The notes beneath the pieces are model-generated. The model was not told the origin of the DNA. It searched no databases and saw only the letters and a list, made by a program, of their open reading frames with translations. Below, piece by piece: positions 18,040 to 51,792 of a DNA stretch of 64,000 bases (its first letter is position 1; every line of letters starts with the position of its first letter). The position numbers and the translations under genes were made by a program. The stretch is from a virus (lineage: Duplodnaviria; Caudoviricetes), in the IMG/VR virus record IMGVR_UViG_3300046522_000316, positions 250,290 to 314,289 of that record. One strand, written 5' to 3'.

Positions 18040-18612
18040 TTATTGCTCCCGTTGGGCGATGCGCTGTTGCACGTAGTTGATAAGTTCGTTCGTGGTTTGC
18101 CACGTCATGTCTTCGTCAGGAATTTCGATGCTGAAATGATCCTCGACACACAACGTCAGATCGAACATTGCAATTTCGTCAGCTTCCATTTCGCTGAATG
18201 GAGTGCGGACGTTGATGTGTTCTGCGCGATAACCAAAACTACCGGCCACCATTTCGAGAATCGTGGCTTTCAATTCTGGTGCCATTTCACTCGGCATAAT
18301 TTCCTCTACTTCGTCAAAGGGCACGGTATCAGGCAGCGGGTAATTCTTGGCTGCGTCGTCAAGCGCAGCGCGCAACGTAGGCTTTGGTTCAGTTCGTTCA
18401 AACCGCCACATTAAATTGAATTCTTTGGCCGGTGTACGCTGGAACATATTCGGGTTGATCGACAGGCCGCTATTCGACAGGGCCGTGCGACGTTCCAGAT
18501 AATCGAGGCGATCAGTATCCCCGAAAAGTTCGCGCAATTTTGCAGCGAGTTTGTAATCGGATGCGCACACCAATTCGTATGCGCGTTGGCGTTCCTGTTT
18601 GGTCAGGCTCAT
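18040..18612 (-). CDS. protein with C-terminal acyl carrier protein-like domain lacking the Ppant serine
   Basis: aa ~112-187: EADEIAMFDLTLCVEDHFSIEIPDEDMTWQTTNELINYV aligns to AcpP [26 protein letters not shown]...TTV..AIDYI with Ser->Glu146. Confidence 0.75.
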   Translation of the reverse strand: MSLTKQERQRAYELVCASDYKLAAKLRELFGDTDRLDYLERRTALSNSGLSINPNMFQRTPAKEFNLMWRFERTEPKPTLRAALDDAAKNYPLPDTVPFDEVEEIMPSEMAPELKATILEMVAGSFGYRAEHINVRTPFSEMEADEIAMFDLTLCVEDHFSIEIPDEDMTWQTTNELINYVQQRIAQREQ

Positions 18613-18614
18613 GA

Positions 18615-18884
18615 TTAATTCACCAGCTTACGAATGAGAAACGACGTGCGAGCGTAACCGATTACTTTTGAATTCTTCGGTAGCTCAATTAGCTTTCCGT
18701 AGGCCTTGCGGGTTTTGTGCCCTTGGCCTTTTCCGTACCAGTACCCGGCCATCAAATGCAGACCGGGCTGGCGGGCGTTTGCACCACGCTTGATATCTTG
18801 CTGCGTGATGTTGATCGCTACCCAATGGCGGCGACCGCTACCGGTTGTTTTCGCCGGAATTTTCACTAACGACAGGTTCTTCAT
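18615..18884 (-). CDS. basic hypothetical protein
   Basis: Start reassigned to MKNLSL. Confidence 0.55.
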   Translation of the reverse strand: MKNLSLVKIPAKTTGSGRRHWVAINITQQDIKRGANARQPGLHLMAGYWYGKGQGHKTRKAYGKLIELPKNSKVIGYARTSFLIRKLVN

Positions 18885-19077
18885 TTTCGTTTTCTTCCAG
18901 ATTGCAGTCAGGGCACGGATCACAAACACTATCGACTTGACCATCACCCCACGGCACCAAACCACCGATCATTCCGTGGTCGCCGCAGGTCATGCATTTA
19001 ATTGAGGCCAATCGTTCAAGCTGTTCAGGCGTCAACGGAACCGCTGGTGCAAATGGAATATCGTTCTCGCCTTCCAT
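18838..19077 (-). CDS. small Zn-finger-like protein
   Basis: CMTCGDHG...CDPCPDC. Confidence 0.55.
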   Translation of the reverse strand: MEGENDIPFAPAVPLTPEQLERLASIKCMTCGDHGMIGGLVPWGDGQVDSVCDPCPDCNLEENENEEPVVSENSGENNR

Positions 19078-19094
19078 CGACTACCTCACACGTT

Positions 19095-19181
19095 TTAAAT
19101 TCCGCGAAGAAACCACGCGATTGCTAAAGCACAACCGACGACAGTAAACGCGCCGGGCCATGTCGTGATTACTTCTACCAT
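19095..19181 (-). CDS. 28-aa membrane peptide
   Basis: Hand-translated MVEVITTWPGAFTVVGCALAIAWFLRGI*; CAGGA SD; start overlaps upstream stop. Confidence 0.5.
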   Translation of the reverse strand: MVEVITTWPGAFTVVGCALAIAWFLRGI

Positions 19182-19444
19182 TGTTGCAATTCCTGTTCAT
19201 GGCGCCACATTTCTTTTTGACGCACGATTTCTTCCATCTGTGCGCGCAGCGGTGCTTCCTCTTCGTGCTGCTTCACACGGTCGGCGCACGTTTCGGTTTT
19301 GACGCAGTGCCCGCCAGTCCACGAACAGCCATAGCCGTTCTGGCTGGTGCCGTAAATGTGGGCATTGATTTGTGTACGCAACGGGCAATCAGAATTCCCG
19401 TGGCCCGGATGATTTGCGTGATTACCTTTTTCAGGATGAATCAT
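19175..19444 (-). CDS. Cys/His-rich hypothetical protein
   Basis: CPL...CSWTGGHC...C; coupled. Confidence 0.6.
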   Translation of the reverse strand: MIHPEKGNHANHPGHGNSDCPLRTQINAHIYGTSQNGYGCSWTGGHCVKTETCADRVKQHEEEAPLRAQMEEIVRQKEMWRHEQELQQW

Positions 19445-19908
19445 TAGTCGCCCCTTGGTGGATTACGTGGCACGCGTTTGTTTGCCAACGCACAATGAAT
19501 ACGTGTCGAATTCGCGCCGGTAGTTTTGCAAATATCGGTGTGGCCCAAACCCAATTTATCAGCCAGCCGAATCACGGCACCCAACACAAATTCAGCAGAC
19601 ACTGCGTCGGTTGGTTCATCGTGCTGGCGTGGATACGGGCGCTCTTCCAGTGGCTCAGGTTGGCGCACCACAATGAACGAACGCAAACCAATTTCGCACA
19701 GCACGTCGTAGGCTTCTGCGAGCGTGTAGCTAAGGCGCCGCCCTTTTTCGTCAACCAACGTGCGCGTCTGCCCGCCGATGAAAAACGTGATGATGAAATT
19801 GTCTTTGAAAGTCGCTTCAAACAATCGGCAAACTTCCGGTGTTTCGGTGTACGGCGCCAGAACCTTTTTGGCCCGGTTCAACGTGAGTGAATCCCCGCGT
19901 GTAGTCAC
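19444..19908 (-). CDS. hypothetical protein, possible C-terminal HTH
   Basis: LGLGHTDICKTTGANSTRIHCALANK. Confidence 0.55.
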   Translation of the reverse strand: MTTRGDSLTLNRAKKVLAPYTETPEVCRLFEATFKDNFIITFFIGGQTRTLVDEKGRRLSYTLAEAYDVLCEIGLRSFIVVRQPEPLEERPYPRQHDEPTDAVSAEFVLGAVIRLADKLGLGHTDICKTTGANSTRIHCALANKRVPRNPPRGD

Positions 19909-20360
19909 TTGCGCCTCCGCTCTTCTTTTGTCTTCGTCACGATTTTCATCATGTCGGAGAACTCGAAATTTTCGTCATTTTGGCAGCGGTAGACAATCAG
20001 TTTAAATCCGACTGTGCCCTGTTCCCACGCCGATGGATCGTTGAGGTGTTCCAGCGTCTTTGCGTCGAACGCACCCATGCGGAAAGTGTTTGAGAAATGG
20101 CCGTCTGCCGTATTTAACCAAACCGCTTTTTCATTCGGTTTAAGTTCTTCTTTTACCCACGCTTCGATTGCCTTCACCACGCCTTCATAACTCAGGTCGT
20201 AGTCGATGCCGGTGTGGCCCTTCGGCGGCACGGCACCCGGTGGATTCAGATGCGGATACCAGTAGTCGATACTCGGCGTCATAATGTTGAGGCCTGTGTG
20301 TTCGTACTCGTATGCGTAAATCGGCATACGTGACAATACAGCATCCCAATCAATTTTCAT
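19905..20360 (-). CDS. hypothetical protein
   Basis: GGAGG SD; coupled. Confidence 0.65.
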   Translation of the reverse strand: MKIDWDAVLSRMPIYAYEYEHTGLNIMTPSIDYWYPHLNPPGAVPPKGHTGIDYDLSYEGVVKAIEAWVKEELKPNEKAVWLNTADGHFSNTFRMGAFDAKTLEHLNDPSAWEQGTVGFKLIVYRCQNDENFEFSDMMKIVTKTKEERRRK

Positions 20361-20722
20361 TGTCCCTCCTGCAAATTGTTCCGTCGCACAAATCCGAAGC
20401 TCAACACGTAGCGCGTGCCCGCAACAACAGGCGTCACGCTGTGCAGATGCAGATCAGGCCGGAAGAAAGTGAAAAAACGATTACTGAAAATTGCACCAGC
20501 GTGTTCCGGTACACCACCATCCTTTGCGTTCCACAAATAAACGTTCAGCCGGTAATGCTTGTGGTCTGGCACAGGATCGCGATGCTTTGGAATTCCAGAT
20601 CCCACCGGATAACGCAGCAGGTACAAATCCCATTTGAAGCGACTGAAAAACTTCCAACGATTTAGGAGTTTCAGTTTTTCATAACCGGTTCCCTGTCGGC
20701 CCGGTTCCCAATTGAATCGCAT
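20357..20722 (-). CDS. 2OG-Fe(II) oxygenase (prolyl-4-hydroxylase-like)
   Basis: LLRYPVGSGIPKHRDP (HxD), LHSVTPV (His), GTRYVLSFG (2OG-binding Arg). Confidence 0.8.
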   Translation of the reverse strand: MRFNWEPGRQGTGYEKLKLLNRWKFFSRFKWDLYLLRYPVGSGIPKHRDPVPDHKHYRLNVYLWNAKDGGVPEHAGAIFSNRFFTFFRPDLHLHSVTPVVAGTRYVLSFGFVRRNNLQEGQ

Positions 20723-20725
20723 GGC

Positions 20726-21004
20726 CTACACCTTTTCGATTGCTGCAAAGCCACGATGTTGCAAGTAACTGCTAGCCCATGACAGGACGGCCCGCGATTC
20801 TGCGTCAGGATTGACCCGCACAACTTCGAAGGTTTTGTCGGCATTAACCCGGATGGAAAATTCAGCATCCGTTCTAGGAATTACCGCGTCAATTACACAC
20901 GCGTCGTCTTGCGGTTCGATGTTGCAGAAAATCACATCGTAAACACCAAGCAATTCATCTTGCATTTGAGTGCATACGACTTCTGTGTTGATACCGATGT
21001 TCAT
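20726..21004 (-). CDS. hypothetical protein
   Basis: GAGG SD. Confidence 0.55.
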   Translation of the reverse strand: MNIGINTEVVCTQMQDELLGVYDVIFCNIEPQDDACVIDAVIPRTDAEFSIRVNADKTFEVVRVNPDAESRAVLSWASSYLQHRGFAAIEKV

Positions 21005-21065
21005 AAAAACCGACCTCGGAATTAATGGCGCACGTTTTTGAACAGAACGTGCAAACTGTTAGGCC

Positions 21066-21494
21066 TTACTGTGCAGCGCCGCCTTTCAGTTCCAGCAGGC
21101 GAGCTTCCAGAGCTTCGACCGACAGGTCTTCCAGTGCCGCGTCTTTCTTCTTGGCGAGAGTGTCGGAGATTTTCGCGATTTCGGTTTCGCGTGCTTTCTG
21201 TTCGGTCTTCGCTTTGTTTTCAGCAACGCGGGTGTCGATGATGCTTTTCACCACGTCGAAACGCAGCTGAATCACCGGATCTTTTTTCGCGCCGGAAACG
21301 AAGCTTTTGTTTTTGCCTTTTTCCAGCTGTTCGTCGAGGTCGATTGCCAGCGAATCGAGGCTCGCTTTGTTGGAGCCGCGTGCGGTCAACGGCAGATCCC
21401 ACAGGTCTTCGACCGACAGCTTACCGATTGGAGTGTCGAAGCGCAGTTTCTGGCGGGTAGCTTGTTCGAAAACGTTTGCGATTTCAGTAGTCAT
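21066..21494 (-). CDS. conserved-type phage coiled-coil protein (KLRF...G.LSVEDLWDL family)
   Basis: Motif KLRFDTPIGKLSVEDLWDLPL; heptad-rich C-terminus. Confidence 0.7.
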   Translation of the reverse strand: MTTEIANVFEQATRQKLRFDTPIGKLSVEDLWDLPLTARGSNKASLDSLAIDLDEQLEKGKNKSFVSGAKKDPVIQLRFDVVKSIIDTRVAENKAKTEQKARETEIAKISDTLAKKKDAALEDLSVEALEARLLELKGGAAQ

Positions 21495-21526
21495 TTTTCA
21501 GTTCTCTTTTTTCAGGTTTTACGGGA

Positions 21527-23545
21527 TTAGAATTTTACGTTCAGGATGCGATTGATTGCGCCCTTCACACGGACTTGCAGTTCAGCACGATCATTGACCG
21601 AGAAGCCAAGGCCGCTCAATTGGTCAGCGCTCGCAGGCACTTTCATTTGCGCGGAAACCGCTTCGAAAGCTTTGCGATGTTTGCTCAGTTCATCGCGCAG
21701 GTATTCGTTGTAGAAACCACGGGTGCCCTCTTCGTTCACGCAGCCTTTGAGCATAAAGAAAACATGCTCATGGCCCACGGCTTGATCGTTCCAGAAGTTT
21801 GGCGACTTCGTGATCAAATCAACCGGTGTCCATTCTTCGGTTTTGACGCCCCAGTTTTCAACCGAGGAACCTACGCCGCCGAGAATGCCTTCGCCTTCGA
21901 TGCTGATATTGCCCGCCGCATCGACGTTGATATAACCAACGGTAACGCGACGATCATTGCCCAGCGCCATTGGATGCGCGAAGCTATAGATTTTGCCCAG
22001 CACTTCAATTTCAACGTCGAAGCCGACATTATTGGTGGAACGCTGCGACCAGTTGTGAACCTTAATTTCGTAGCGGCCACGGTTGATATCGCCTTTGGCA
22101 GTCCAGAAAATGTTTTCCACTGGATCAACACTGTTCTTGGCGGAACCGGCGTTCATGTCCACATCGAGCGTGGCACCGAAAACTTTACGGGTACGGAAGT
22201 CGCAAACGTCACGACCATTGTTTACGCTCAGGTCGAGGTCATCGCCGTTCTGCCACGAAAGCGAAACGCGAATATCGCCGTCGATTTTACCGCCTGCTTT
22301 TTTCACACGTTCGCGAATCGACGACGAAGTAACTTCACCGATGTACGACCACGAAAATGGGTTGTCCCATTTCAGCAGTGGTTTCGCATCCGGATTAACC
22401 GGGGCGATCAGGGAAACGAAACTGGCGGTGTGTTCGCTCTTCACCAGCACTTCGAGGGTATCGGCTTTCGGCAAAACTTTCTTGATGAAATCTTTGATCG
22501 AAATGTCTTCAACATCGTTCAGCACTGGAACGTTTTTCTTGGTCGGTTTGATGCTGCCAAACGCGCCGCCCAGCAGTTGCTTTTTCACCGTGCCGTCAAC
22601 GAACAAAACGTCGTTAACCGAAATGTCTTCACGCACCGCATAACGACGCGCCAGCGAATCACCGAGGCCCAGTTTCTCGACCAGCTTTTCAGCTTCGTCG
22701 ATCATTTTCTGAGTGACCAACGCTTTCGAACGTTTGTAGTTCGGGCCAGCGGTTTTGAATTCGAAAGCCTTCACGGCGTTTTCGAGTTCCATGCCTTTGG
22801 TGATATCCGACAGCAGCGTGCCCACAACGTCGTTGAGAATGCGGGTGTGTGGCGTCGAATTCTTCCACAGGAAAATTTCACGACCGCGTTCGGTTTTCAG
22901 CTTGGCGTAATCCGCTTTCAGCTTGCGCAGCGCTACAACTTTCTTGCGCTTTTCGTCGCCTTTGTACAGCGAGTCGGTGTCGATCAGATCCATCACGATA
23001 TCAATCGCGAAATCCGAGATTTCATTGATCGAACGTTCCAGCAGATTTTTGTCTGCGTTGGATTCACCGATGTAGTCAGTTGGGTTTTTATCCCAACGGA
23101 AAAGCGCAGGCACCAGACCGTGGAAGTGGTGCCACACTTCGCCCGTTTCTTGGCTGGTGGTTTTCGCACAACCGTATTGCGGCATTTCCGCAATGAAACG
23201 GTTTTTGATTTTCAGCGAACGCACCTTCGCCGCCATTGCATCGGCCACCGCTTGATGCGTTGGATCATCGACCTGCACATCCCACACGGTCAGCAGCTTA
23301 CCTTTCTCGGCGTACACGACAGCACCGAGGTTGCGCACGAAGTTGTGGCAGGTATTGCACTCGTATTCGCGACGTTCACGGAACATCGGGTTGGTGCCTT
23401 CAGGGAACGACGCAAGGTAATGCGCCCACAATTCGTCACCGTGGATATCAACGAGGAAAACGCTGTTCTTTTTCCCTTCGTCTTTTTGCAGCATCGAATT
23501 GTAGTTTGCAGTTACAGCCTGACCGAATTTCGAAAAATCACTCAT
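21527..23545 (-). CDS. 672-aa protein with N-terminal Cys/His cluster and YfaP/DUF2135-like C-terminal beta domain
   Basis: ECNTCHNF and WHHFH motifs; DIRVSLSW.NGDDLDL...LDVDMN...PVENIFW...GRYEIKVHNW. Confidence 0.75.
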   Translation of the reverse strand: MSDFSKFGQAVTANYNSMLQKDEGKKNSVFLVDIHGDELWAHYLASFPEGTNPMFRERREYECNTCHNFVRNLGAVVYAEKGKLLTVWDVQVDDPTHQAVADAMAAKVRSLKIKNRFIAEMPQYGCAKTTSQETGEVWHHFHGLVPALFRWDKNPTDYIGESNADKNLLERSINEISDFAIDIVMDLIDTDSLYKGDEKRKKVVALRKLKADYAKLKTERGREIFLWKNSTPHTRILNDVVGTLLSDITKGMELENAVKAFEFKTAGPNYKRSKALVTQKMIDEAEKLVEKLGLGDSLARRYAVREDISVNDVLFVDGTVKKQLLGGAFGSIKPTKKNVPVLNDVEDISIKDFIKKVLPKADTLEVLVKSEHTASFVSLIAPVNPDAKPLLKWDNPFSWSYIGEVTSSSIRERVKKAGGKIDGDIRVSLSWQNGDDLDLSVNNGRDVCDFRTRKVFGATLDVDMNAGSAKNSVDPVENIFWTAKGDINRGRYEIKVHNWSQRSTNNVGFDVEIEVLGKIYSFAHPMALGNDRRVTVGYINVDAAGNISIEGEGILGGVGSSVENWGVKTEEWTPVDLITKSPNFWNDQAVGHEHVFFMLKGCVNEEGTRGFYNEYLRDELSKHRKAFEAVSAQMKVPASADQLSGLGFSVNDRAELQVRVKGAINRILNVKF

Positions 23546-23597
23546 GTACTTACACTTCCTTCATGTTGGTATATTTTTAGGATCGCTTGGCACGCAA

Positions 23598-23843
23598 TTA
23601 CATTTCGCGTTTGCTTTTGTCTTTGCGTAATTCGCCAACGAATCCGAGGTCTTTTTTGCAGCCCAAACAAATGCCGTGACAGGCCATGTTTTCGCGGTAG
23701 GCTTTGTGCGGGCACCGCCACTGCTTGAGCTTGTCGAGGAACGCCAGCAAGACGACCACGGCAATCAGCACCAGTAGGAGGGTCATTCCCACTGCCATTT
23801 CTGCCAGCGTCTTGGAAATCCAAAACCAGAAATAGTCGAACAT
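23598..23843 (-). CDS. small membrane protein with Cys/His motif
   Basis: TM followed by CPH...CLGC. Confidence 0.6.
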   Translation of the reverse strand: MFDYFWFWISKTLAEMAVGMTLLLVLIAVVVLLAFLDKLKQWRCPHKAYRENMACHGICLGCKKDLGFVGELRKDKSKREM

Positions 23844-23844
23844 T

Positions 23845-24255
23845 TTATCCCCGCTTTTTGCCGATGAAAGATTGCTCTTTACGGAACGCCTCGCTCCAGA
23901 TATCGGCGTGGTCGTTGTTGATATCGACGTAGGGATTATCCTTACCGCCGAAACCTTCCTGCGCCATCATCTTGCCCATTTGCGCCGGGCTGTATTCTTC
24001 GAACTCATGTTCGCGAACATACAGGATGGAAATGCGGGCGCCGCCTTTGTCGATATTCACTTCTTCCATGATCGGATCGGTCATTTGACGAAGCGAAGGG
24101 CCATACGACCAGACGCACATAGAGCCTTCGTAAACCGACTGCCATTCGTGTTTTTGGTACGCTTGGATTTTTACGGTTACATCAAAACGGCGTTTGCACT
24201 TTACGAATTTCAACGGCATTACATATTCCTCATTTTTTCCATCAAAGCATCCCAC
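23845..24255 (-). CDS. hypothetical protein
   Basis: Tiled ORF; start may be MPLKF. Confidence 0.55.
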   Translation of the reverse strand: MGCFDGKNEEYVMPLKFVKCKRRFDVTVKIQAYQKHEWQSVYEGSMCVWSYGPSLRQMTDPIMEEVNIDKGGARISILYVREHEFEEYSPAQMGKMMAQEGFGGKDNPYVDINNDHADIWSEAFRKEQSFIGKKRG

Positions 24256-24431
24256 ACGTCACGCGGGCGGTCATTGCGGGTGAACGGTACGCAGCGGTCG
24301 GCGTCGAGGCCAAAGCTCGCTACGGTATCGGCTGGCACATCCTCAACAGCGTGAGTAATTGCCTCGGCCATGTTTACGCCGGTTTTCGGTTCGTACCGAT
24401 CATCGACGATTTCATAAGAACGATTTTCCAT
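24219..24431 (-). CDS. hypothetical protein
   Basis: GAGGA SD. Confidence 0.55.
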   Translation of the reverse strand: MENRSYEIVDDRYEPKTGVNMAEAITHAVEDVPADTVASFGLDADRCVPFTRNDRPRDVWDALMEKMRNM

Positions 24432-24468
24432 TTTGTATTTCCTCGCCTTCCTCAGTGCAGCAATTCGC

Positions 24469-27449: not shown

Positions 27450-27451
27450 TT

Positions 27452-31796: not shown

Positions 31797-32051
31797 TCAG
31801 GACTTCGCCACCAAATAATGCTCACAGGTTTTCGGGTTGTACTCGGTGCGCATTGCATTATCTAGCGCCTCTTCCAAGCTTTGCCCGGTGGCGTTCAACC
31901 ATGCGCCCCGTGGATCGTGCCAAACAACGCGGTGTTCTTTGTAAACGCCGCCCCGGTCAAAATCCACATGCACGCTGGCCCAACGTTCGCGAACCGCCAG
32001 CCATTCCATGCGCCGGAGATTTTCCACATCGGTTTTGAATTGATCAGCCAT
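31797..32051 (-). CDS. hypothetical protein
   Basis: Start reassigned to MADQFK (AGGA SD). Confidence 0.6.
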   Translation of the reverse strand: MADQFKTDVENLRRMEWLAVRERWASVHVDFDRGGVYKEHRVVWHDPRGAWLNATGQSLEEALDNAMRTEYNPKTCEHYLVAKS

Positions 32052-32802
32052 TTTGTTTTTCCTGTTGTGCTTTACGGCGACGGTCGAATTCCGGAATGGA
32101 GATTTTGCTGCCACGTGCCGAGTGCAATGCCGCCAGACGATCCGACAGCACTTTGTGATCGTGTTCGACCAGTGCAAAGATTTCGTCGTCTTCTGCGCCC
32201 CACACGGTGCGTTTGTCGCGTTCCTCGCGCTTGGTCTTACCTTCGCGCAGCGTTTGGGCAACCTGCGTCACTGGCGACGTTACAGAGGCTTTCTGAATCG
32301 GCGGCAAGTTGAGCCAGTCAGGGCACGAACAGGCTACGCGATACATCTGCTTGCCTCTAGTGGTCAGGTACGGCATTTGCTCACGGGTGAAACCGGAATG
32401 ACGTTTTTCAGTCACGCCGATAAAAATCGCCAGCAAGTCAATTCCGAAATCGAAATCCTGTTCCTGCGTTTTGGTGAACTGTGCGCGGGCCTGTGTGTAG
32501 GTAGCCGGGCATTTACCATCAAACTGACGCTCGGCGTCCAGCGCTTTTTGCACGGCGTCCACATTTGCATAGCTGGCAACTTCTGCAAACGCGACGTAAT
32601 GAGGAACGTCAGATTTGCGTTTCGGTTTACGCACAAGACACACCACAACTTTATGCGTGTGTTGGTTAATGGTCGCAACCAGTTCGCCAGTTTCCTTGTG
32701 GTGAACAGCGACGTATTTTTCGCCGTTCTCTTTCAAGCTGTCGGCGGTGGAAAAGGTCAGCTTGTGATTCGGGAACAATGCGCGGGCGTCAGTCTGTTTC
32801 AT
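32044..32802 (-). CDS. hypothetical protein
   Basis: AAGGA SD, after family-C hairpin. Confidence 0.7.
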   Translation of the reverse strand: MKQTDARALFPNHKLTFSTADSLKENGEKYVAVHHKETGELVATINQHTHKVVVCLVRKPKRKSDVPHYVAFAEVASYANVDAVQKALDAERQFDGKCPATYTQARAQFTKTQEQDFDFGIDLLAIFIGVTEKRHSGFTREQMPYLTTRGKQMYRVACSCPDWLNLPPIQKASVTSPVTQVAQTLREGKTKREERDKRTVWGAEDDEIFALVEHDHKVLSDRLAALHSARGSKISIPEFDRRRKAQQEKQNG

Positions 32803-34146: not shown

Positions 34147-34295
34147 CGGTTACGAACCCTGTCGTGCCGTTTCGGTTCGCGTTTCAGTTTTTCAATTTGT
34201 TCCTGCTTGCGTTGTTCCCGCAAGTATTCTGCAAATTGACGGTCGGCCCAGTCGCGCTGTTGCTGGCGCATGTTGTCGTGCCAGAACATAATTAA
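34101..34295 (-). CDS. hypothetical protein
   Basis: Hydrophobic small ORF; frame uncertain. Confidence 0.3.
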
Positions 34296-35527
34296 ATCCC
34301 CGATGTGATAATTGCAAAGTCACTCGGATTCAAATCGGTGTGCTGTGCAAATTTAACCAGTTCGGTAAAACCGAATCGGCCCGCCAGTTCGTCGATGATT
34401 TCGATCCGGCGTTTCATGCCCGACAATTCGTGAACTGCGGAAGCGTCGAAGTCGCACTTGCCTTCGTTTACGATGTGGTTAAAAAGGGCAACCAGACCGG
34501 GCGTAGAAACATCCGCCAACAAATCCACGATTTCGTCTTCGTCTTCCGCGTCGATAGTTTCGCCGTCGATTTCCTCTTCCTCTTCTTCGAGGTCGTCAGG
34601 GTCACGGAACGAAGAACAGACGTTGTAGCAACTGCGGCGGCACGGGTGAACCGATTCAATCATTTCGCGAAACACACGCAGCACGTCAGATTGCGCATGC
34701 GCCACGACGTTTTCACTTTCGTATAAATCGAAAACCCGATCCGTGATTTTCAATTCGAACGCTCGCTGCAAACTGAACAATTGCTGCGTCGTGTCTTTGC
34801 CGTTGTACAGGTGCTGCATATAGCGCAGCGATTGTTTCACGCAGGCCACATAACGCACGATTACAGATACCAGCCATTCGTCTAGGCTCTTCGGCATTGC
34901 AGCGCCAGACAAACGCGCCATATCGCACAGGGCCAGAATGTGCGACTCGGAACCGACGTTGTGATCAATCACCAGCATTTCACCAACGTACAAACGGAAG
35001 CCGTTAAAGCCTTCGCTGATTTCCACCACAGCACGGGCGAACGTGGTCGCGTTGGGCACGTTGCACAGGTGAATTGCACCGTCGCTGTGAATCTGCATCA
35101 CGAAACCGGCAGTGGCTTTTGTAGGCGCCAATTTCTTTTCGAGGTCGCCCATGATCAGCGACAGATTGTGCGGACGGCTGTTTTGGAATTTGACAGGCTC
35201 GCCAATTTCCTTTGCCATTTTCACCACGACCTTTTTCGGCTGCGCTACACGCGGCGCAGAATCCATCGGTTCGTGATTGGCGATATACGTTTCAATATCA
35301 CGAACCGTTCTCCAACCACTCGATACGCCGCCCGGAATTTCGATTTCGAATTCCTCTTCAAGATCCATGAGGATTTCGCCAAGATCCATTCCGTTGATTT
35401 TCAGGGAATGTCTGATCGTGTCTTCCGAATCAATCGGGTGCCCGATTTTCATGCCCATGTGATCAGTAATGACGCGGCGAATGCGGTTCATTTGATCAGC
35501 GGAAACTTTCTTGCTCGGCTTAGCCAT
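34292..35527 (-). CDS. 411-aa multidomain protein with N-terminal ACP-like domain lacking the Ppant serine
   Basis: Start MAKPSKK after family-B leader; LKINGMDLGEILMDLEEEFEIEIP...WRTVRDIETYI aligns to AcpP with Ser->Gly46; acidic tract near C-terminus. Confidence 0.75.
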   Translation of the reverse strand: MAKPSKKVSADQMNRIRRVITDHMGMKIGHPIDSEDTIRHSLKINGMDLGEILMDLEEEFEIEIPGGVSSGWRTVRDIETYIANHEPMDSAPRVAQPKKVVVKMAKEIGEPVKFQNSRPHNLSLIMGDLEKKLAPTKATAGFVMQIHSDGAIHLCNVPNATTFARAVVEISEGFNGFRLYVGEMLVIDHNVGSESHILALCDMARLSGAAMPKSLDEWLVSVIVRYVACVKQSLRYMQHLYNGKDTTQQLFSLQRAFELKITDRVFDLYESENVVAHAQSDVLRVFREMIESVHPCRRSCYNVCSSFRDPDDLEEEEEEIDGETIDAEDEDEIVDLLADVSTPGLVALFNHIVNEGKCDFDASAVHELSGMKRRIEIIDELAGRFGFTELVKFAQHTDLNPSDFAIITSGI

Positions 35528-43785: not shown

Positions 43786-43806
43786 TCGGTACAGCGCCCA
43801 TTTTTA

Positions 43807-45309: not shown

Positions 45310-45401
45310 TTCGAAACTTCCTAAATAGTGTGAGTGTGATACTGCGTCGGCGTGATTGCCGATTGGATTTCAGAATGCCATTACAGGCGCTTAGGTGTCA
45401 A
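45310..45401 (-). promoter_or_regulatory. sigma70-type promoter plus family-A leader
   Basis: TTGACA(45401-45396)-18 bp-CATTCT(45377-45372) with TG; CACACTCACACTATTTAGGAAG. Confidence 0.65.
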
Positions 45402-45676
45402 CTGCTTTTGCGGTGGCTTTCGTTTAGCACCGGGTAGTTCTGGCCGTGGCCGAAAAACTTTCCTGCGGCGTCGAGCCGTGTTTCCGGGGTTACGTGCCAA
45501 ACCTGCATAGGGTTTTGCAGCCGGGTACGTTTCCCGCCCGGAATCTTTTCCAGCGCTTCTTTAACCGTGGAACCGAAACCCCAATCCCCGAAGTCCACGA
45601 CGATAAAGTGGGTCAGTGCAGGATTCAGATTTTCCGGTTTCGCGATTTCGCTGGCCGCGTCTAATTTGCGAGCCAT
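45398..45676 (-). CDS. hypothetical protein, paralog of 50069..50344
   Basis: MARKL...LTHFI...G.WG.G.T..EA...QVW..TPE.R; AAGGAGG SD. Confidence 0.7.
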   Translation of the reverse strand: MARKLDAASEIAKPENLNPALTHFIVVDFGDWGFGSTVKEALEKIPGGKRTRLQNPMQVWHVTPETRLDAAGKFFGHGQNYPVLNESHRKSS

Positions 45677-45719
45677 AAGTTTTTACCTCCTTTCGGTTTT
45701 GGGGTTTCAGTACAACCAG

Positions 45720-45745
45720 CATGCGCACCATTCTAGATGCGCATG
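45720..45745 (-). promoter_or_regulatory. family-C intergenic hairpin (TAGAAT in loop)
   Basis: CATGCGCATC-TAGAAT-GGTGCGCATG. Confidence 0.55.
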
Positions 45746-45759
45746 AGGGTTTATCTGAA

Positions 45760-46197
45760 TCAGGAAAGCGGGTGCGGCTTCCGCATGTGCGGTGGTGGCA
45801 CAGGATCAATATGCGCCTCTACGTCACGATCTAAAACCGTCGCCAGAAGTTCAGCGGCAGAATTTGCAGCGTGACGATAAACGCCGTCGCCTTTTTCCCA
45901 CGTCGCGAAATATGTCGAGCCTTCTAAGCACTCGGCCAGCACTTCGCCCTGTTCTTCGGTTTCGATATAAACCGCCAGCAGTGCGCCGGGGCTGTCGCTG
46001 AACATCGGGTAGAACTTCGCAATTGCGTCATTCAGGCGCTGCGCGTCTAACTGCTGTTCGCGGTCTTCGTCTTCGAAGAGTTCAACCACGTCGTCATCGT
46101 GCAGGCCCCACAAATGTTCTAGGCGGTGCAGAATTACGGCGCGTTGCTGTTTTGTCAGAATGATTTTCTGCGGAAACGGCATTTCACTTACTCCCAT
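45760..46197 (-). CDS. hypothetical protein
   Basis: Tiled ORF. Confidence 0.6.
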   Translation of the reverse strand: MGVSEMPFPQKIILTKQQRAVILHRLEHLWGLHDDDVVELFEDEDREQQLDAQRLNDAIAKFYPMFSDSPGALLAVYIETEEQGEVLAECLEGSTYFATWEKGDGVYRHAANSAAELLATVLDRDVEAHIDPVPPPHMRKPHPLS

Positions 46198-46465
46198 CGA
46201 GTGGTGGTATCGGGGGCACGTTCCAGTCGAGTATCAAAGGCGCCCACAAAATGACAAGGTACAGCCACACGCAAAAGCCAACGAAAAACTTCCAGCGCCA
46301 CGGCATACGTTTCATGCCGTAATAAAGATTGGCGCTCTTTTCATCCGACGCGTGAGTCTGACACACGTAGTAGGTCATGAAAGCGGAAAACACGAAACCC
46401 AAAATTAAATACAGGGCAACGGCAACCGCCAGAACATAACCTAAAGCCAAAAACATTTCGTTCAC
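46184..46465 (-). CDS. membrane protein
   Basis: Two TM helices; GGAGG SD. Confidence 0.65.
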   Translation of the reverse strand: MNEMFLALGYVLAVAVALYLILGFVFSAFMTYYVCQTHASDEKSANLYYGMKRMPWRWKFFVGFCVWLYLVILWAPLILDWNVPPIPPLDGSK

Positions 46466-46812
46466 TCGGCCTCCTTTGGCAGACCGGCGAATATTCCGGG
46501 GCCAGATGTATGTGGTTCCAAACGCAGACCATGCAGACGCGCATAATCCAGTTCACGCGGCGAATATGTACGCTCTTCGGAATCCTGCCCAAAGGCAACC
46601 GATTTGCGAACGGTGATTCCGCCGTCACTGTTCACACGAAACGCCTGCTTACCGAAAACGGGAAAACCGATCAGGGCGCGTTGTGTTTTTGCGTCGAGGC
46701 GGATTTCTTTGTTTTCCAAATCCTGCACAGCGATGGTTTCGAAGAACGAAAGAACGCCTGCGTGATTAGGAACGGCCCAGCTTTCGATTTCGGTGAATTG
46801 CATCCGGCTCAT
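46462..46812 (-). CDS. hypothetical early protein
   Basis: Start MSRMQF after family-A leader. Confidence 0.65.
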   Translation of the reverse strand: MSRMQFTEIESWAVPNHAGVLSFFETIAVQDLENKEIRLDAKTQRALIGFPVFGKQAFRVNSDGGITVRKSVAFGQDSEERTYSPRELDYARLHGLRLEPHTSGPGIFAGLPKEAE

Positions 46813-46901
46813 TGTCAAACTTCCTTAATTGCGTGAGTGTCTAAATCGCAGGCACAGTTTGCCCGCCACCAAAGAATCTCAAAACCGGGTTCCGGTGTCA
46901 A
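46813..46901 (-). promoter_or_regulatory. sigma70-type promoter plus family-A leader
   Basis: TTGACA(46901-46896)-17 bp-GATTCT(46878-46873) with TG; ACACTCACGCAATTAAGGAAG. Confidence 0.6.
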
Positions 46902-47089
46902 CTGGTTTCGTTTTCGGTTTCCGGTTTTGGTTTTGGGTTCAGCTTTTGTTCTAGCTCGCGTTGTGCGCGCTCATAAGGGTTATCCCCGTGGCACTGGCGC
47001 CAAAGCTCTACGCATACGCCTACAACCAGAATCGCACCACAGGCGTATTGCACAAGCTCTAGGATCATTGCCCAAAAGTCGAGGGTCAT
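46898..47089 (-). CDS. small membrane protein
   Basis: TM ILELVQYACGAILVVGVCV; AGGAG SD. Confidence 0.6.
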   Translation of the reverse strand: MTLDFWAMILELVQYACGAILVVGVCVELWRQCHGDNPYERAQRELEQKLNPKPKPETENETS

Positions 47090-47112
47090 GGTTTCCGTCT
47101 CCTATAGAAAGT

Positions 47113-47145
47113 GAAAAGCCGGGAACTGGCCCCGGCTTCGTTTTT
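47113..47145 (-). terminator. intrinsic terminator (possibly bidirectional)
   Basis: GAAGCCGGG...CCCGGC-TTTT with T-runs on both strands. Confidence 0.6.
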
Positions 47146-47146
47146 G

Positions 47147-47599
47147 TCACTGCGCCGTTTTCGACGCTTCCTGTTCTGCTTTCGTTTTGAACTTGCGCAC
47201 ACCGATTTTGCAAAGCTGGCGAATCTTGGAACTGTTATCGACGGTAGGCGACGGTTCGAAATCGTTGGTCACGGTGAAAAGCCATTTGTCAGAAATGCAA
47301 ACCTGATTAAACAGCGGATCAGTTTCCAGCAGCCCGACAAAAAGATCGTCGTTTGCATCCATGATCGTTTTTCCGAAACCACGGCGACCGGTCGAAGGCG
47401 ACACGATATAAAAACGATCCAGCAATTCCACGATCAGCGAACCGTCACCCTCGACAGTTGTGAACAGGTGATTAAATTCTGAATCGCCCCACGAAGTTTC
47501 GCCGGGTTCTTCGCCGTCCGGTTGTGGAATCTTGCAAACCAGTTCGTGGAACGTGAAACCGGCTGGAATTACAAAGTGCGTTAATTTCTGTCCCATCAT
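47147..47599 (-). CDS. hypothetical protein
   Basis: GAGGA SD. Confidence 0.65.
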   Translation of the reverse strand: MMGQKLTHFVIPAGFTFHELVCKIPQPDGEEPGETSWGDSEFNHLFTTVEGDGSLIVELLDRFYIVSPSTGRRGFGKTIMDANDDLFVGLLETDPLFNQVCISDKWLFTVTNDFEPSPTVDNSSKIRQLCKIGVRKFKTKAEQEASKTAQ

Positions 47600-47824
47600 T
47601 TATTCCTCGGGGTTTTTTGGTTCGTTGGGTTTATCCAGCGCTTTCAAAACAGCGACCGCCAGAATGGCCGCTGCTAATTGCGCGTCGAATGCTTTCCGCT
47701 GGCTGTCATAGTAGCGCTTGACTGACAGGGCCTTGGAAACTTCGCACCACGCGAAAATAATCATGCCCAGCAGAATCGCGCCCATGATAATGCGCAGCCA
47801 CCAAATCGGTTCTATTTCGCTCAC
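47600..47824 (-). CDS. small membrane protein
   Basis: Two hydrophobic helices. Confidence 0.6.
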   Translation of the reverse strand: MSEIEPIWWLRIIMGAILLGMIIFAWCEVSKALSVKRYYDSQRKAFDAQLAAAILAVAVLKALDKPNEPKNPEE

Positions 47825-48375
47825 GCTGTTTGTTCCTGACTGGCGATGAATTCTGAGTGCGTGGTGGTGAAACGCAGGTACTCACACGGCACGGCAGTAT
47901 CGGCGCCGAAGTGGTTTGCAGTCTTCAACATGTAGTCTTCCTTCAGCATGGCGAAGAATGCGATGGCGCCCACCACATCATAATTGCGCAGCGCCACACG
48001 TTCGAAAAACAAATCGACGTAAGGCGCGCCGCTGCCACCTTTTGCAAAAACGTAATTCGGTTCCTGCGTGCTGGTGTTGTAAGTCTCACACCACGAATAA
48101 TTCGTGACGTAGGCAATGCGCAGACGGTAGCCGCGTGGGATCGAATGAGAACGCCCGTTGCAGTCGATATATTTCTCGACCGCCATCGGAATCGGTGCAT
48201 CCCATTCGTCTTCGGGCGAAAGATAACGACGCTCGCTTTTCACCGGCTCGGTGATTTGATGCAGCAGGTCGATATTCAGTTGGTCGATTACGGCGCGCAC
48301 ATCGTGGTCGGCGTCGTTCACGTCGATAATTGCTTGGGCCAACAATTTGGTAATCGCTTTCTTTGCAGGGGTCAT
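47821..48375 (-). CDS. hypothetical protein
   Basis: ATGA-coupled ORF. Confidence 0.65.
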   Translation of the reverse strand: MTPAKKAITKLLAQAIIDVNDADHDVRAVIDQLNIDLLHQITEPVKSERRYLSPEDEWDAPIPMAVEKYIDCNGRSHSIPRGYRLRIAYVTNYSWCETYNTSTQEPNYVFAKGGSGAPYVDLFFERVALRNYDVVGAIAFFAMLKEDYMLKTANHFGADTAVPCEYLRFTTTHSEFIASQEQTA

Positions 48376-48866
48376 GGTTTCGTTCCTTCTACGACGGTGA
48401 AATTAGAACGGTTGCCGCGTGCAAAGGCGTCACGCAATTCTGCGCGGTCAATGTCACGCATAATCAGCAGACCGTTTCCTGTTGAGGTGATACGTTGTTC
48501 GAGTTCGGAATATTCAGCGTCCATAATAAATTCGAGCGCTTTCCAAATATCCTGCATCTGGAATTTCAGACGCTGCTTCGTATGTTCTTCGTCGTGCTGT
48601 TCCGTCGTCTTGTTGTACAGGACGATAATCGGCAGGTGGTCGTAATCGAATTCGACGCCAGCTTCTACCAATTTCACGGCGAACATATACGGGCGCATTT
48701 TCAAATCTGCGAATGCGGCGGAACTACGCACGTCCACATTAATTTTGCTGGTGTCAGGTTTCAGGAACGCCCGGAATTTTTCTGACAGGTCTGGATACTG
48801 ACCAATGAGCGACCACACGTCGCCCTGCTCGGGAACCTCAGAAGACAGCACGGTTAAATAAAGCAT
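48372..48866 (-). CDS. hypothetical protein
   Basis: Follows family-B leader. Confidence 0.7.
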   Translation of the reverse strand: MLYLTVLSSEVPEQGDVWSLIGQYPDLSEKFRAFLKPDTSKINVDVRSSAAFADLKMRPYMFAVKLVEAGVEFDYDHLPIIVLYNKTTEQHDEEHTKQRLKFQMQDIWKALEFIMDAEYSELEQRITSTGNGLLIMRDIDRAELRDAFARGNRSNFTVVEGTKP

Positions 48867-48874
48867 GGTTTCAT

Positions 48875-48925
48875 TTCCTTGATAAAGGTCACTACTGACA
48901 AAACCCGCACATGGCGGGCTTGTCG
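48875..48925 (-). repeat. family-B leader
   Basis: AAGCCCGC-CATGT-GCGGGTTTTGTCAGTAGTGACCTTTATCAAGGAA. Confidence 0.75.
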
Positions 48926-48930
48926 TTTTG

Positions 48931-49299
48931 TTACCGGCGCACGCTGCGTTGGCGCGGGTATTTATTTTTCGTTTTCTTCGCCCGCGTGAAAAGCAGCGCC
49001 ATGTTTTCCGGCTGCGACTTTATGTAGCTGTCGTGCCACAGGGCATTGCGCAGCGTGCGCAGATCGCACGGGCCTATATCATCCTTGCCCGGTGTAACGA
49101 GCATGCAGCCATTGCCTTCGTGAGGAATCACGATGGTGGCGCGGGTGAAAATGAACTGGCAAATATCAATCGCCAGATGATCCGCCTCCTGCCGGGTTTT
49201 CAATTCGAACACGGTGTCGAGTGGCCCCGGCACAATGTGCGGGTTAGGTGCGAACAGCGCTTGAATTTGTGGCAGTTGCGAAAGCATGGAATTTTGCAT
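48931..49299 (-). CDS. hypothetical protein
   Basis: GAGGA SD. Confidence 0.55.
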   Translation of the reverse strand: MQNSMLSQLPQIQALFAPNPHIVPGPLDTVFELKTRQEADHLAIDICQFIFTRATIVIPHEGNGCMLVTPGKDDIGPCDLRTLRNALWHDSYIKSQPENMALLFTRAKKTKNKYPRQRSVRR

Positions 49300-49314
49300 G
49301 GTCTGATCCTCAGA

Positions 49315-49518
49315 TTAAATTTTAATTCGTTTCACTTTCACGCACGGGCATTTCGTGCAGTGGATTGTAAAGTTGCGGTGGTGAATCACGCCCGCGTGCG
49401 ACAGGTCAACGTCGATAATGCGACCGTACTGATCCGAACGCCATTTCACGTCCTCAATTCCCACCACGCGGAAATTGTGGTTGCACAGGCCAAGAAGCCA
49501 ACGCAGAATTTTAATCAA
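49315..49518 (-). CDS. small Cys/His protein
   Basis: GLCNHNF...HCTKC. Confidence 0.6.
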   Translation of the reverse strand: MIKILRWLLGLCNHNFRVVGIEDVKWRSDQYGRIIDVDLSHAGVIHHRNFTIHCTKCPCVKVKRIKI

Positions 49519-49994
49519 TTGGCTTTCTCCACGACCGCAACGCGATTGTGTTCACGGCGTGCGTTGCCGTTAGGGCGGCGTGAGTCTTTATCAGCAGCCA
49601 TCCAAACAAATGCAGGCGTGATACGCACAACATAATGCGCGTACAGCGTCGAGCCGCTGCAATCACCGTAGGCCACCAAATCACCGAGGCCGATTTCCAC
49701 GCCGCGCACGTCACGCGGTGCTTTCTCTTTCGCAACACCTTTCTTTTTGGCCGGGGCCTTTGCAGGTTTCGCAATCGGCTTTTCCTGCACAACTTCCCGC
49801 GTGTCCTTCAACCGGCAAATCGCCGCCAGTTCTTCGACCGTCGAAATCGACATATCCGCCACGGAAAGGAAAGCCATAAATTCGGGCGCGTTTCCAGAAA
49901 TGTCGAACAGTGCGTGCCCGCTGCCGTAGCAACGAATTTTCATGTTGCCGGGTTTCAGGCGGCGGTTCACTTTGGCGATGTTGTTCGGGGTCAT
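49515..49994 (-). CDS. hypothetical protein with C-terminal SH3/YopX-like domain
   Basis: DVRGVEIGLGDLVAY; follows family-B leader. Confidence 0.65.
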   Translation of the reverse strand: MTPNNIAKVNRRLKPGNMKIRCYGSGHALFDISGNAPEFMAFLSVADMSISTVEELAAICRLKDTREVVQEKPIAKPAKAPAKKKGVAKEKAPRDVRGVEIGLGDLVAYGDCSGSTLYAHYVVRITPAFVWMAADKDSRRPNGNARREHNRVAVVEKAN

Positions 49995-50001
49995 GATTTT
50001 G

Positions 50002-50060
50002 TTCCTTGATAAAGGTCGATTTGTTTTACTACTGACAAAGCCCGCACATGGCGGGCTAAG
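50002..50060 (-). repeat. family-B leader
   Basis: TAGCCCGC-CATGT-GCGGGCTTTGTCAGTAGTAAAACAAATCGACCTTTATCAAGGAA. Confidence 0.75.
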
Positions 50061-50068
50061 TGTTCAGG

Positions 50069-50344
50069 TCAATTAATTCGCACGGCGGGTTTCTGGCCCA
50101 TCTTGCAAACCAGCGAACCGTTTTCGTTGATGCGCGATTCTGGCGTACACATCCAGATTTGCACATTCTTGGAACGGGTAGGCCCGCAACGTCTTTCGTC
50201 CGACGCTGCAATTGCTTCGTCGAGTGTGGCGCCCTTGCCCCAGTAGCCGGAATCGCACGCGAAAATAAAATGCGTCAGCGACTGGTCAACGGTGGCCGGA
50301 TCAATGCGCAGTTCGAATTTACCCATTTTCAATTTACGAGCCAT
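50069..50344 (-). CDS. hypothetical protein, paralog of 45398..45676
   Basis: Start MARKLK (AAGGA SD); shared motif set. Confidence 0.7.
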   Translation of the reverse strand: MARKLKMGKFELRIDPATVDQSLTHFIFACDSGYWGKGATLDEAIAASDERRCGPTRSKNVQIWMCTPESRINENGSLVCKMGQKPAVRIN

Positions 50345-50345
50345 T

Positions 50346-50606
50346 TTAATTTCCTTGTCCGTGGTCACGATTCAGAACCGCTTCGATACGAATTCTGAGT
50401 GGGTCTTGCATTGGTTTCGAACGGGTGTAGCACTGCGCAATTGTTTCGCGCAGCAATTCCCGCAACTCTTCAACTTCGGTCAACGCTTTGGCCGGGGCGC
50501 CGCGTGGATCTAATCGACCGCACGCCAAGCATTCACCGTAGTACGGATCGGCGTCCGTCACATCACTGCACGCCGGGCAATATTCGTCATCGTGTTCGTT
50601 GCACAT
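50346..50606 (-). CDS. Zn-ribbon/coiled-coil protein
   Basis: CPAC...CLACG. Confidence 0.6.
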   Translation of the reverse strand: MCNEHDDEYCPACSDVTDADPYYGECLACGRLDPRGAPAKALTEVEELRELLRETIAQCYTRSKPMQDPLRIRIEAVLNRDHGQGN

Positions 50607-50609
50607 TGT

Positions 50610-51095
50610 TCAGTCCTCAAAACCGTTCGCTTTGTCGTCAGCGAAAAACGCATGAGGGAATTTGCTGCGATCAAAATTCCCGCCTGCCGGATGCGTGTCG
50701 AGATAAAATTGTGCGCGGCGTTCTGCGGTCATGCCACGACGAATAGATTCTTCCAGATCCCACAATTCTTGCATTTCGTGTTTGTGGATATATTCACCAC
50801 TTGGCTTGCGGCTCAACTCTTCGCGGCGGGCCTGCAATTTGCGGATCAGTTCGAAACCTGCCTGTTCTGGCTTGGGTTCCATTTTTGCAACCAGTTCACG
50901 ACCTTCAGCAACCCACTGATCGAAACCCAAATGGTTCAAGGCGCAAACCACGACGCTGTGAGTTTCGTACAGGCCTTTCGGTTGGTTGTCGTAGGAGAAA
51001 TAATAGTAGCCTTCACCTTTGTGCAAATTCAGGTGGTCGCAGCCGATGGCTTTCATAATGGCGGCGGTGGTAATACGTTTGGTGGTCGTGGTCAT
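50610..51095 (-). CDS. hypothetical protein
   Basis: Follows family-B leader. Confidence 0.7.
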   Translation of the reverse strand: MTTTTKRITTAAIMKAIGCDHLNLHKGEGYYYFSYDNQPKGLYETHSVVVCALNHLGFDQWVAEGRELVAKMEPKPEQAGFELIRKLQARREELSRKPSGEYIHKHEMQELWDLEESIRRGMTAERRAQFYLDTHPAGGNFDRSKFPHAFFADDKANGFED

Positions 51096-51102
51096 TTTTG
51101 CA

Positions 51103-51159
51103 TTCCTTGATAAAGGGCGATTTGTTTTACTACCGACAAACCCCGCACTTGGCGGGGTA
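51103..51159 (-). repeat. family-B leader (compensatory stem variant)
   Basis: TACCCCGC-CAAGT-GCGGGGTTTGTCGGTAGTAAAACAAATCGCCCTTTATCAAGGAA. Confidence 0.75.
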
Positions 51160-51164
51160 GTTGG

Positions 51165-51449
51165 TTAATGCGTTGTCAGGACTTCGCGAATCTCGCCGCC
51201 GTACAGGCCGGACGTTGGTATGCGTTCAATGTCCAGCGGCCAACCCGGACGCCTACGGTTTGAATATTCCGTGTCGGCGTCCATTTCTACGGTGATCGTC
51301 GCCGGGCAATTACTCCAGTAAAGAATTTCCTTCACGGTGCCCGTGCCTTTCGTGCCTTCGCGACTGACGACACGAACACGCGTCCCGGTTTTTATTTCTA
51401 TGTCGTTCTCACTCCAGTAGAAAACTGGAATTGCGTTAGGGCTTGCCAT
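51165..51449 (-). CDS. small SH3/KOW-like protein
   Basis: Start MASPNA; IKTGTRVRVVSREGTKGTGTVKEI. Confidence 0.6.
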   Translation of the reverse strand: MASPNAIPVFYWSENDIEIKTGTRVRVVSREGTKGTGTVKEILYWSNCPATITVEMDADTEYSNRRRPGWPLDIERIPTSGLYGGEIREVLTTH

Positions 51450-51459
51450 GGCGTTCCCC

Positions 51460-51792
51460 TTACAGGTCGTCGCGGTTGATTGTGAATCCCGCACCGTGGC
51501 GGTTAATGATGGTTAAAAGTCTTCCGCCTTCGGGTTCTTTCGGAAGCGGCGCGTCAGGATCATAGGTCGTAAGGTAATCGACAATATCCTGCGGCGTCTT
51601 CCAACCGTGGCCCGCAACGTAACCAACCTTTAGATGGAAATCACGTTCCAGCGACAGGCCCAAAATGTCCAAGTCCACGCGATTCTGAATCAGGTGAACT
51701 AGCGGCGTGTCGAGTTTCACCAGCACCGGATTAGTTGCGGTGGCAGTGGCTACGATTCGAAGCACTTCAGCGGCGATTACTTGCATATCCAT
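51460..51792 (-). CDS. stand-alone ACP-like protein lacking the Ppant serine
   Basis: LDTPLVHLIQNRVDLDILGLSLERDF...GWKTPQDIVDYL aligns to the ACP fold with Ser->Arg38. Confidence 0.65.
   Translation of the reverse strand: MDMQVIAAEVLRIVATATATNPVLVKLDTPLVHLIQNRVDLDILGLSLERDFHLKVGYVAGHGWKTPQDIVDYLTTYDPDAPLPKEPEGGRLLTIINRHGAGFTINRDDL

Follow-up and report, generated by a model that had tools for sequence, protein, structure and literature searches.

What does an acyl carrier protein (ACP) domain do in a phage when the serine that should receive its phosphopantetheine cofactor is missing? This question is raised by three genes, here called p1 (18040..18612), p2 (34292..35527) and p3 (51460..51792), which lie on the minus strand of a 64,000-nucleotide stretch of viral DNA (Caudoviricetes; IMG/VR record IMGVR_UViG_3300046522_000316, positions 250,290 to 314,289), referred to below as the window. 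The window belongs to a ~314 kb contig of a Lu11/HRDY3-like jumbo phage. An initial annotation had read the three genes as ACP decoys under selection against modification. Judged from their sequences, p1, p2 and p3 are not carriers and are not loadable at the canonical site. We consider it reasonably probable that the ACP lineage of Lu11-like phages uses the ACP fold as a cofactor-free protein-binding module, one that does not depend on the serine and has lost it repeatedly. The Ser-less domain of p2 is maintained by purifying selection, and that of p1 is so maintained more weakly.

ACP-like modules in p1, p2 and p3

The p1 gene encodes a protein of 190 amino acids, which comprises an N-terminal domain and a C-terminal ACP-like domain; the open reading frame (ORF) is supported by ten orthologs and by synteny kept with the contig of a relative. 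The ACP-like domain spans residues ~113-185 (18058..18276, minus strand), as delimited by Pfam PF00550 and by alignment to the ACP 2ehs. Against PF00550, p1 scored 33.7 bits over residues 117-181, the curated cut-off being 20.8. It also matched PHROG 5934, ‘acyl carrier protein’, with an E-value (E) of 8.8e-8 and aligned end to end with solved bacterial ACPs (phmmer, best E 1.5e-7). In the alignment to 2ehs, ADEI lies opposite ADSL, which places Glu146 (codon GAA, 18175-18177) at the serine position. The GAA codon was seen again in an independent assembly (L043) that carries a 94%-identical p1 ortholog, while the Ser-bearing ortholog has AGC.

The p2 gene encodes 411 amino acids. According to the ORF and an AlphaFold2 (AF2) model, its ACP-like domain is joined by a linker to an alpha/beta middle domain, after which come an acidic tract and a C-terminal domain that is helical. 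The gene starts at the ATG at 35527, and the orthologs P0012-P0022 begin at the same methionine. The ACP-like domain (residues 9-86; 35270..35503, minus strand) was recognized by phmmer, by a family profile and through the PF00550 matches of orthologs. As a single sequence, p2 scored 18.6 bits against PF00550, just below the Pfam cut-off; its orthologs, however, matched this family in 11 of 11 cases. Residues 9-85 aligned with the Bacillus subtilis ACP by phmmer (E 6e-6), a profile built from the first 95 residues of the 11 orthologs matched solved ACPs with an E of 7.5e-11, and PHROG 5934 was matched with an E of 2.5e-6. The serine position is occupied by Gly46, codon GGA (35390-35392).

The third gene, p3, is a single-gene cassette for a stand-alone ACP-like protein of 110 amino acids, with a ribosome-binding site (GAGGG) 8 nt before its ATG. 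By sequence it had no match in Pfam, PHROG (including 5934) or the PDB, and its fold was assigned by profile hidden Markov model (HMM), by hhalign and from a structure model. A search of 909 six-frame ORFs of the window with the p2 domain picked out p3 (E 1.8e-5), and hhalign of p3 against the p2-family profile gave a probability of 86% (E 5e-6). An HMM of the ACP-like domains of this phage clade, built without p3, recovered p3 with an E of 5.4e-8 and 28.6 bits, the next ORF of the window reaching 8.5 bits. The ESM Atlas model of p3 (predicted TM-score, pTM, 0.69; predicted local distance difference test, pLDDT, 0.78) had PP-binding families in 10 of its 10 nearest structure rows and, over residues 1-80, matched two stand-alone ACP rows with template-modelling (TM) scores by target of 0.78-0.84. 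Here the serine position is Arg38, codon CGC (51679-51681). The closest relative of p3 is the ACP-like domain of p2.

The HMMER comparison with PP-binding/ACP profiles that the initial annotation had proposed was therefore borne out for each gene, with p1 above the cut-off, p2 through its orthologs and p3 by the clade HMM. Its proposal of ACP-fold modules is upheld by PF00550 for p1, by the family profile for p2, and by the leave-one-out HMM together with the Atlas model for p3; so is its reading of Glu, Gly and Arg at the attachment site, which the alignments assign to Glu146, Gly46 and Arg38. All three proteins have the fold and homology of PF00550 without the D-S-L serine of ACP/PP-binding domains, and none has Ser or Thr at or beside the attachment site. 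As the initial annotation had predicted, the modules appear not to be loadable at the canonical position.

Gene company is likewise that of a non-carrier. By a codon-usage gene call, the window holds ~116 genes, mostly small, of which 102 are on the minus strand. A Pfam sweep of all 116 ORFs named few families, among which PP-binding was matched twice. This sweep found in the window no phosphopantetheinyl transferase (PPTase), ketosynthase, fatty acid synthase (FAS), polyketide synthase (PKS), lipid-metabolism acyltransferase or other enzyme that depends on a carrier, and no enzyme of acyl or peptidyl transfer. The PPTase family PF01648 was absent from the whole genomes of HRDY3 and Lu11. The ACP-like genes therefore do not have the PPTase or FAS/PKS/non-ribosomal peptide synthetase company of carriers, in agreement with the initial annotation, which had seen no PPTase or fatty-acid genes in the window. 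The Pfam sweep and the clade HMM found no fourth ACP-like copy within the window.

Serine loss and constraint in one jumbo-phage lineage

As a baseline, viral ACPs were fetched from IMG/VR by helix II/III peptide patterns that excluded the serine. The 37 loci obtained represented 30 distinct viral ACPs, all with D-S-L or D-S-I. Since 30/30 of these retain the serine, phage ACPs do not normally lack it. The survey of phage ACP-like domains for serine loss that the initial annotation had called for thus has a divided outcome, in that loss was found in the Lu11 copies and in the p2 family but not among ordinary viral ACPs.

Within the p1 family, the ten metagenomic orthologs (identity 53-100%, 10/10 with PF00550) have Ser in six cases (A-D-S-V) and Glu or Asn in the remainder. 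The non-Ser members are the window protein and its closest relative, both with Glu, P0008, also with Glu, and P0010 with Asn. Among the GenBank relatives of the window, which are only the Pseudomonas jumbo phages Lu11 (280 kb) and HRDY3 (314 kb), the HRDY3 ortholog of p1 retains Ser (M-D-S-L), and HRDY3 also has a stand-alone ACP bearing Ser. The syntenic Lu11 ortholog (L050 1480-1974, minus strand) has Asp (V-D-D-L); in this distant protein the Ser-less ACP domain persists with the canonical LALEEEFEMEIPD helix intact. A second Lu11 protein, Lu11_0371 (L045 1522-2247), annotated as a ‘hypothetical protein’, has at its N-terminus an ACP-like domain in which Glu occupies the site (A-D-E-T). Both ACP-like domains of this published phage, V-D-D-L and A-D-E-T, are hence without Ser.

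In the p2 family, Ser was found at the site in none of 11 orthologs; the residue is Gly in eight, Thr in one and Asp in two, and one ortholog has a Ser shifted one residue past the attachment site. A contig of 55.5 kb appears to carry both a Ser-bearing p1 (P0009) and a Ser-less p2 (P0020).

The initial annotation had taken three different substitutions at one site as evidence of selection against modification. Such selection would predict that close orthologs never have Ser, but the residue is retained in six of ten p1 orthologs and in HRDY3, and has been lost multiple times, to Glu, Asn and Asp. Because the serine is polymorphic among p1 orthologs, the site is better described as dispensable than as counter-selected, and the earlier argument is not supported. 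Asp, Asn, Thr, Gly and Glu are common at the N-termini of helices. That most of the replacements are such ordinary helix starters would fit a constraint at the site that is structural and not functional.

Several features point to a common origin of the modules. A tryptophan two residues before the conserved Thr that follows helix III is common to the p1 family, the p2 family, p3, Lu11_0371 and HRDY3 XDJ15384. At this helix III-IV turn position, HRDY3 XDJ15383 and Mimasvirus ACPs have Phe, and in the 30 ordinary viral ACPs the residue is Ile, Leu, Val or Met. By analogy, the aromatic position would correspond to Ile62 of AcpP, which lines the acyl pocket. In a tree of ACP domains (~86 columns), the p2 domain clusters with the ACPs of HRDY3, XbC2 and Kaldavass (support 97/94), although the deeper branches and the placement of p3 and Lu11_0371 are not resolved. 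On the evidence of these alignments, the ACP-like modules of p1, p2 and p3 belong to one jumbo-phage ACP lineage, and their fusion partners are unrelated. The initial description of ‘three unrelated genes’ is thus correct for the fusion partners and incorrect for the ACP-like domains, p3 being nearest to the p2 domain and the Trp being shared.

We propose that the common ancestor was a lineage of phage ACPs typical of Lu11-like jumbo phages, for which Trp or Phe in place of an aliphatic residue at the helix III-IV turn would serve as a marker. In this lineage the ACP fold would act as a protein-binding module without need of a cofactor, whereby the carrier serine would have become dispensable. 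The serine would have been lost at least five times, namely in the p2 ancestor, in the p1 lineage of the window, in P0008/P0010, in the Lu11 ortholog of p1 and in Lu11_0371, with at least two or three of the losses falling within the p1 family. The loss in p3 may be a further event or one shared with p2.

The strongest evidence that a Ser-less domain is kept under selection comes from p2. Its ACP-like domain has a mean pairwise identity of 0.68 among the 11 orthologs, compared with 0.57-0.77 for the other p2 domains. Relative to an 87%-identical ortholog, the ratio of non-synonymous to synonymous substitution rates (dN/dS) is 0.18 for the ACP-like domain and 0.24 for the whole of p2, and that of the middle domain is 0.06. 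Invariant in the family are E51, E57, E58, E59, E61 and E63, in helix II and the following turn, as well as F60, P65 and W72. The exposed acidic residues of helix II are the docking surface of AcpP. Among p1, p2 and p3, only p2 retains the full acidic helix II; by domain alignment it is kept in part only in p1 and in p3. The case for p1 is weaker, its ACP domain showing a dN/dS of 0.34 between two Glu-bearing orthologs, a value based on small counts (9.5 non-synonymous and 6.5 synonymous differences). The modules thus probably act by binding other proteins, a reading drawn from these patterns of conservation and best supported for p2. The latter may, like AcpP, dock onto a basic surface through its invariant acidic helix II. 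For the domains fused to it in p1 and p2, the module could be an adaptor or regulatory arm, and p3 could be a strain-specific accessory copy.

Two of the more distant p2 orthologs, HRDY3 XDJ15348 and P0026, are without an ACP-like domain and start at the middle domain, which indicates that the ACP-like domain was added to a pre-existing protein in one sub-lineage.

Competing explanations and genomic setting

The best surviving alternative follows the initial annotation in assigning the modules a hostile role. According to this explanation, ACPs of Lu11-like jumbo phages have become cofactor-free docking modules, selected as mimics of apo-ACP that can never be loaded. Whether on their own (p3) or as part of a fusion (p1, p2), they would occupy host ACP clients early in infection, or deliver the fused domains to them, and would thereby halt or divert lipid synthesis, envelope synthesis or stress signalling. 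Candidate targets would be the host PPTase, PlsB, Lpx or Fab enzymes, SpoT and acyl-homoserine-lactone synthases. We regard this as unlikely. In its favour, the acidic helix II residues with which AcpP docks are all retained in p2, and the three genes lie in a one-strand block of ~116 genes that are small and for the most part of unknown function. Overproduction of apo-ACP is toxic to Escherichia coli, and the orthologous regions of Lu11 have annotated sigma-70-like promoters, consistent with early expression. In the window itself, however, scans for sigma-70 promoters and for terminators around p1, p2 and p3 did not rise above shuffled expectation, so that an ‘early operon’ is not shown. Mimicry is also poorly matched by an identity of only 24-29% between the p1, p2 and p3 domains and solved bacterial ACPs, and by the partial loss of the acidic helix in p1 and p3. 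The majority of p1 orthologs retain Ser, and unloadability is therefore not the selected trait. Finally, the relative represented by contig L049, in which the gene upstream of p3 has a 98%-identical counterpart, manages without p3.

A second alternative is that the modules are relics of phage ACP accessories that once worked, in which the serine drifted after the carrier role had become useless, with at least the p1 domain and p3 heading to loss. This we find quite doubtful. The variable Ser state among close orthologs would be expected from such drift, as would the long branch of the Glu lineage of p1 in the ACP-domain tree (0.89) and its raised dN/dS. In the same tree, p3 has the longest branch of all, and it is without relatives and absent from a close relative of the phage. 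All reading frames are nevertheless intact and dN/dS is well below 1. The Ser-less domain of p2 is conserved like the rest of the protein across its orthologs, the distant phage Lu11 retains two Ser-less ACP-like domains, and p3, which is preceded by a good ribosome-binding site, recurs in identical form in independent samples.

That the proteins are still carriers, using a non-canonical modification residue or another prosthetic group, has almost nothing to commend it, as direct evidence is nil beyond the one p2 ortholog with Thr at the site and the one with Ser a residue further on, and it is opposed by the lack of Ser/Thr at or beside the site in all three, of a PPTase in the HRDY3 and Lu11 genomes, and of acyl- or peptidyl-transfer enzymes in the window.

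The reading as cofactor-free binding modules of one phage lineage remains the one that we prefer, but several points weigh against it. The binding role is deduced from conservation only. The ACP domain of p1 lies on the long branch described above and evolves faster than the N-terminal domain of the same protein (dN/dS 0.05; mean pairwise identity of 85% among orthologs), which could reflect relaxed constraint after loss of the serine. The AF2 model of p1, built on a 10-sequence alignment, had a pLDDT of 41 and was unusable for a fold search; that of p2 was confident in the C-terminal two-thirds and low in the ACP-like part (pLDDT 40-55). The search for a PPTase or a true ACP in this phage covers the 64-kb window of a 314 kb genome. 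For p3, no homolog exists outside this phage, and hence no divergent copy with which to gauge selection. No real homolog was found by a word-indexed search, by exhaustive HMMER of 1.84 billion representatives, by tblastn of phages or in the PDB, and a viral contig scan with the neighbour gene of p3 gave no match.

Two apparent p3 homologs from the exhaustive HMMER search, P0028 and P0029, were rejected, as they are translated tandem DNA repeats in which ten and eight weak repeats sum to E-values of 1e-12 and 4e-5, respectively. Translations of tandem repeats with summed weak matches constitute a false-positive type in this kind of search.

Contigs of two other studies contain p3 at 99-100% identity, and this recurrence in independent samples means that the gene is not an assembly artefact. 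In L049, the cassette is missing and 10 nt separate the stop of the upstream neighbour from the start of the gene downstream (L049 3418-3433). The site (window 51449-51803; L049 3418-3433) therefore shows a presence/absence polymorphism. The downstream gene of L049 is far more divergent than the upstream one, which marks the p3 site as a recombination junction. In Lu11, an unrelated 58-aa ORF occupies the p3 slot (L044 2893-3069).

The fusion partners resemble little that is known. The N-terminal domain of p1 (residues 1-93; 18334..18612, minus strand), delimited by ortholog conservation and with the motif DRLDYL...TLRAALDDA, had neither a Pfam nor a PHROG assignment. A related motif recurs in a window ORF at ~31800-32267 (minus strand), which has RRMEWL ... 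SLEEALDNAM for DRLDYL ... TLRAALDDA; the motif and its recurrence may, from the sequences, represent a family of small phage domains. In p2, the middle domain (residues 113-260; 34748..35191, minus strand) is modelled as a helix, five strands and helices with a pLDDT of 80-93, and the C-terminal helical bundle, which follows the acidic tract (residues 328-411 including the stop codon; 34292..34546, minus strand), with a pLDDT of 78-90. The non-ACP part of p2 gave no significant match by Foldseek against the PDB and AlphaFold DB clusters or in an Atlas shape search. In VIA-align comparisons, similarities of the middle domain to PsiB (Z 7.1) and frataxin (Z 5.8) were at noise level only and were not built on, and that of the C-terminal bundle to death domains (Z ~6) was within noise for helical bundles.

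Lu11 and HRDY3 are distant from the window, with a DNA identity of 76-77% in short stretches only, and DNA near-identical to the window is present in rhizosphere, soil and river metagenomes. Among the neighbouring genes, the one that follows p1 (17763-18038) was considered as a decayed copy of the stand-alone HRDY3 ACP, a possibility that was rejected on comparison. Upstream of p1, a 672-aa protein (window 21527-23545) is conserved in relatives, and its ortholog (L042 721-2736) matches Pfam DUF8224. On the contig of a relative, a 34-aa ORF that adjoins a 356-aa gene was called as a gene (L043 6759-6863, orthologous to window ~13784-13888); it matches Pfam N_methyl (PF07963), the prepilin-type N-terminal motif.

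Comparison with known systems

A literature search for phage ACPs that are Ser-less or mimics found no relevant paper, which is not proof of absence. What is new here is that a single jumbo phage has three ACP-derived, cofactor-free modules and that the lineage to which they belong can demonstrably dispense with the serine. The natural variation among the orthologs, in which one site is Ser, Glu, Asp, Asn or Gly, amounts to an experiment on whether phage ACPs need the cofactor. It also bears on annotation, in that the database label ‘acyl carrier protein’ counts such genes as metabolic accessories of phages, whereas those of the window, and of the Lu11-like group at large, cannot carry. If the proteins are binding modules, they would offer a handle on host-takeover or assembly steps in jumbo phages. 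Should it be true that their targets are host ACP clients, they would represent a new viral attack on a hub of bacterial lipid metabolism.

With bacterial type II ACP (AcpP; PF00550), the modules share the helical domain and the signature of helix II, EIP and helix III, and p2 has the acidic docking helix in addition. They differ from it in the replacement of Ser by Glu, Gly and Arg, in their low identity (24-29%), in the lack of PPTase or FAS company, in the fusion of p1 and p2 to unrelated domains, and in having Trp at the helix III-IV turn where the bacterial protein is aliphatic.

The orphan ACPs of phages (PHROG 5934) are closer, as p1 and p2 match their profile and the p2 domain falls with the ACPs of XbC2/Kaldavass and HRDY3 in the tree. 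Phage ACPs are as a rule recorded as accessory genes of rare occurrence. However, the orphan ACPs of the Eneladusvirus/Mimasvirus type bear the serine, as do 30 of the 30 viral ACPs sampled, while p1, p2 and p3 are without it. A Ser-bearing ACP of the Eneladusvirus/Mimasvirus jumbo phages has been found in virions by liquid chromatography-tandem mass spectrometry (PMC7760394).

The statement in the initial annotation that there is no described system of this kind was too strong, since a cofactor-less ACP acts as a binding subunit in Plasmodium. There, the mitochondrial ACP is without a phosphopantetheine group and is a pure protein-binding subunit (Falekun et al. 2021, PMC8547962). As in the phage modules, the cofactor site has been lost, there is no type II fatty acid synthesis (FASII) setting and the domain has been retained. 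The Plasmodium protein is eukaryotic and organellar and has a known partner, Isd11-Nfs1, whereas the modules described here are viral, occur in several copies and, in two cases, are fused to other domains.

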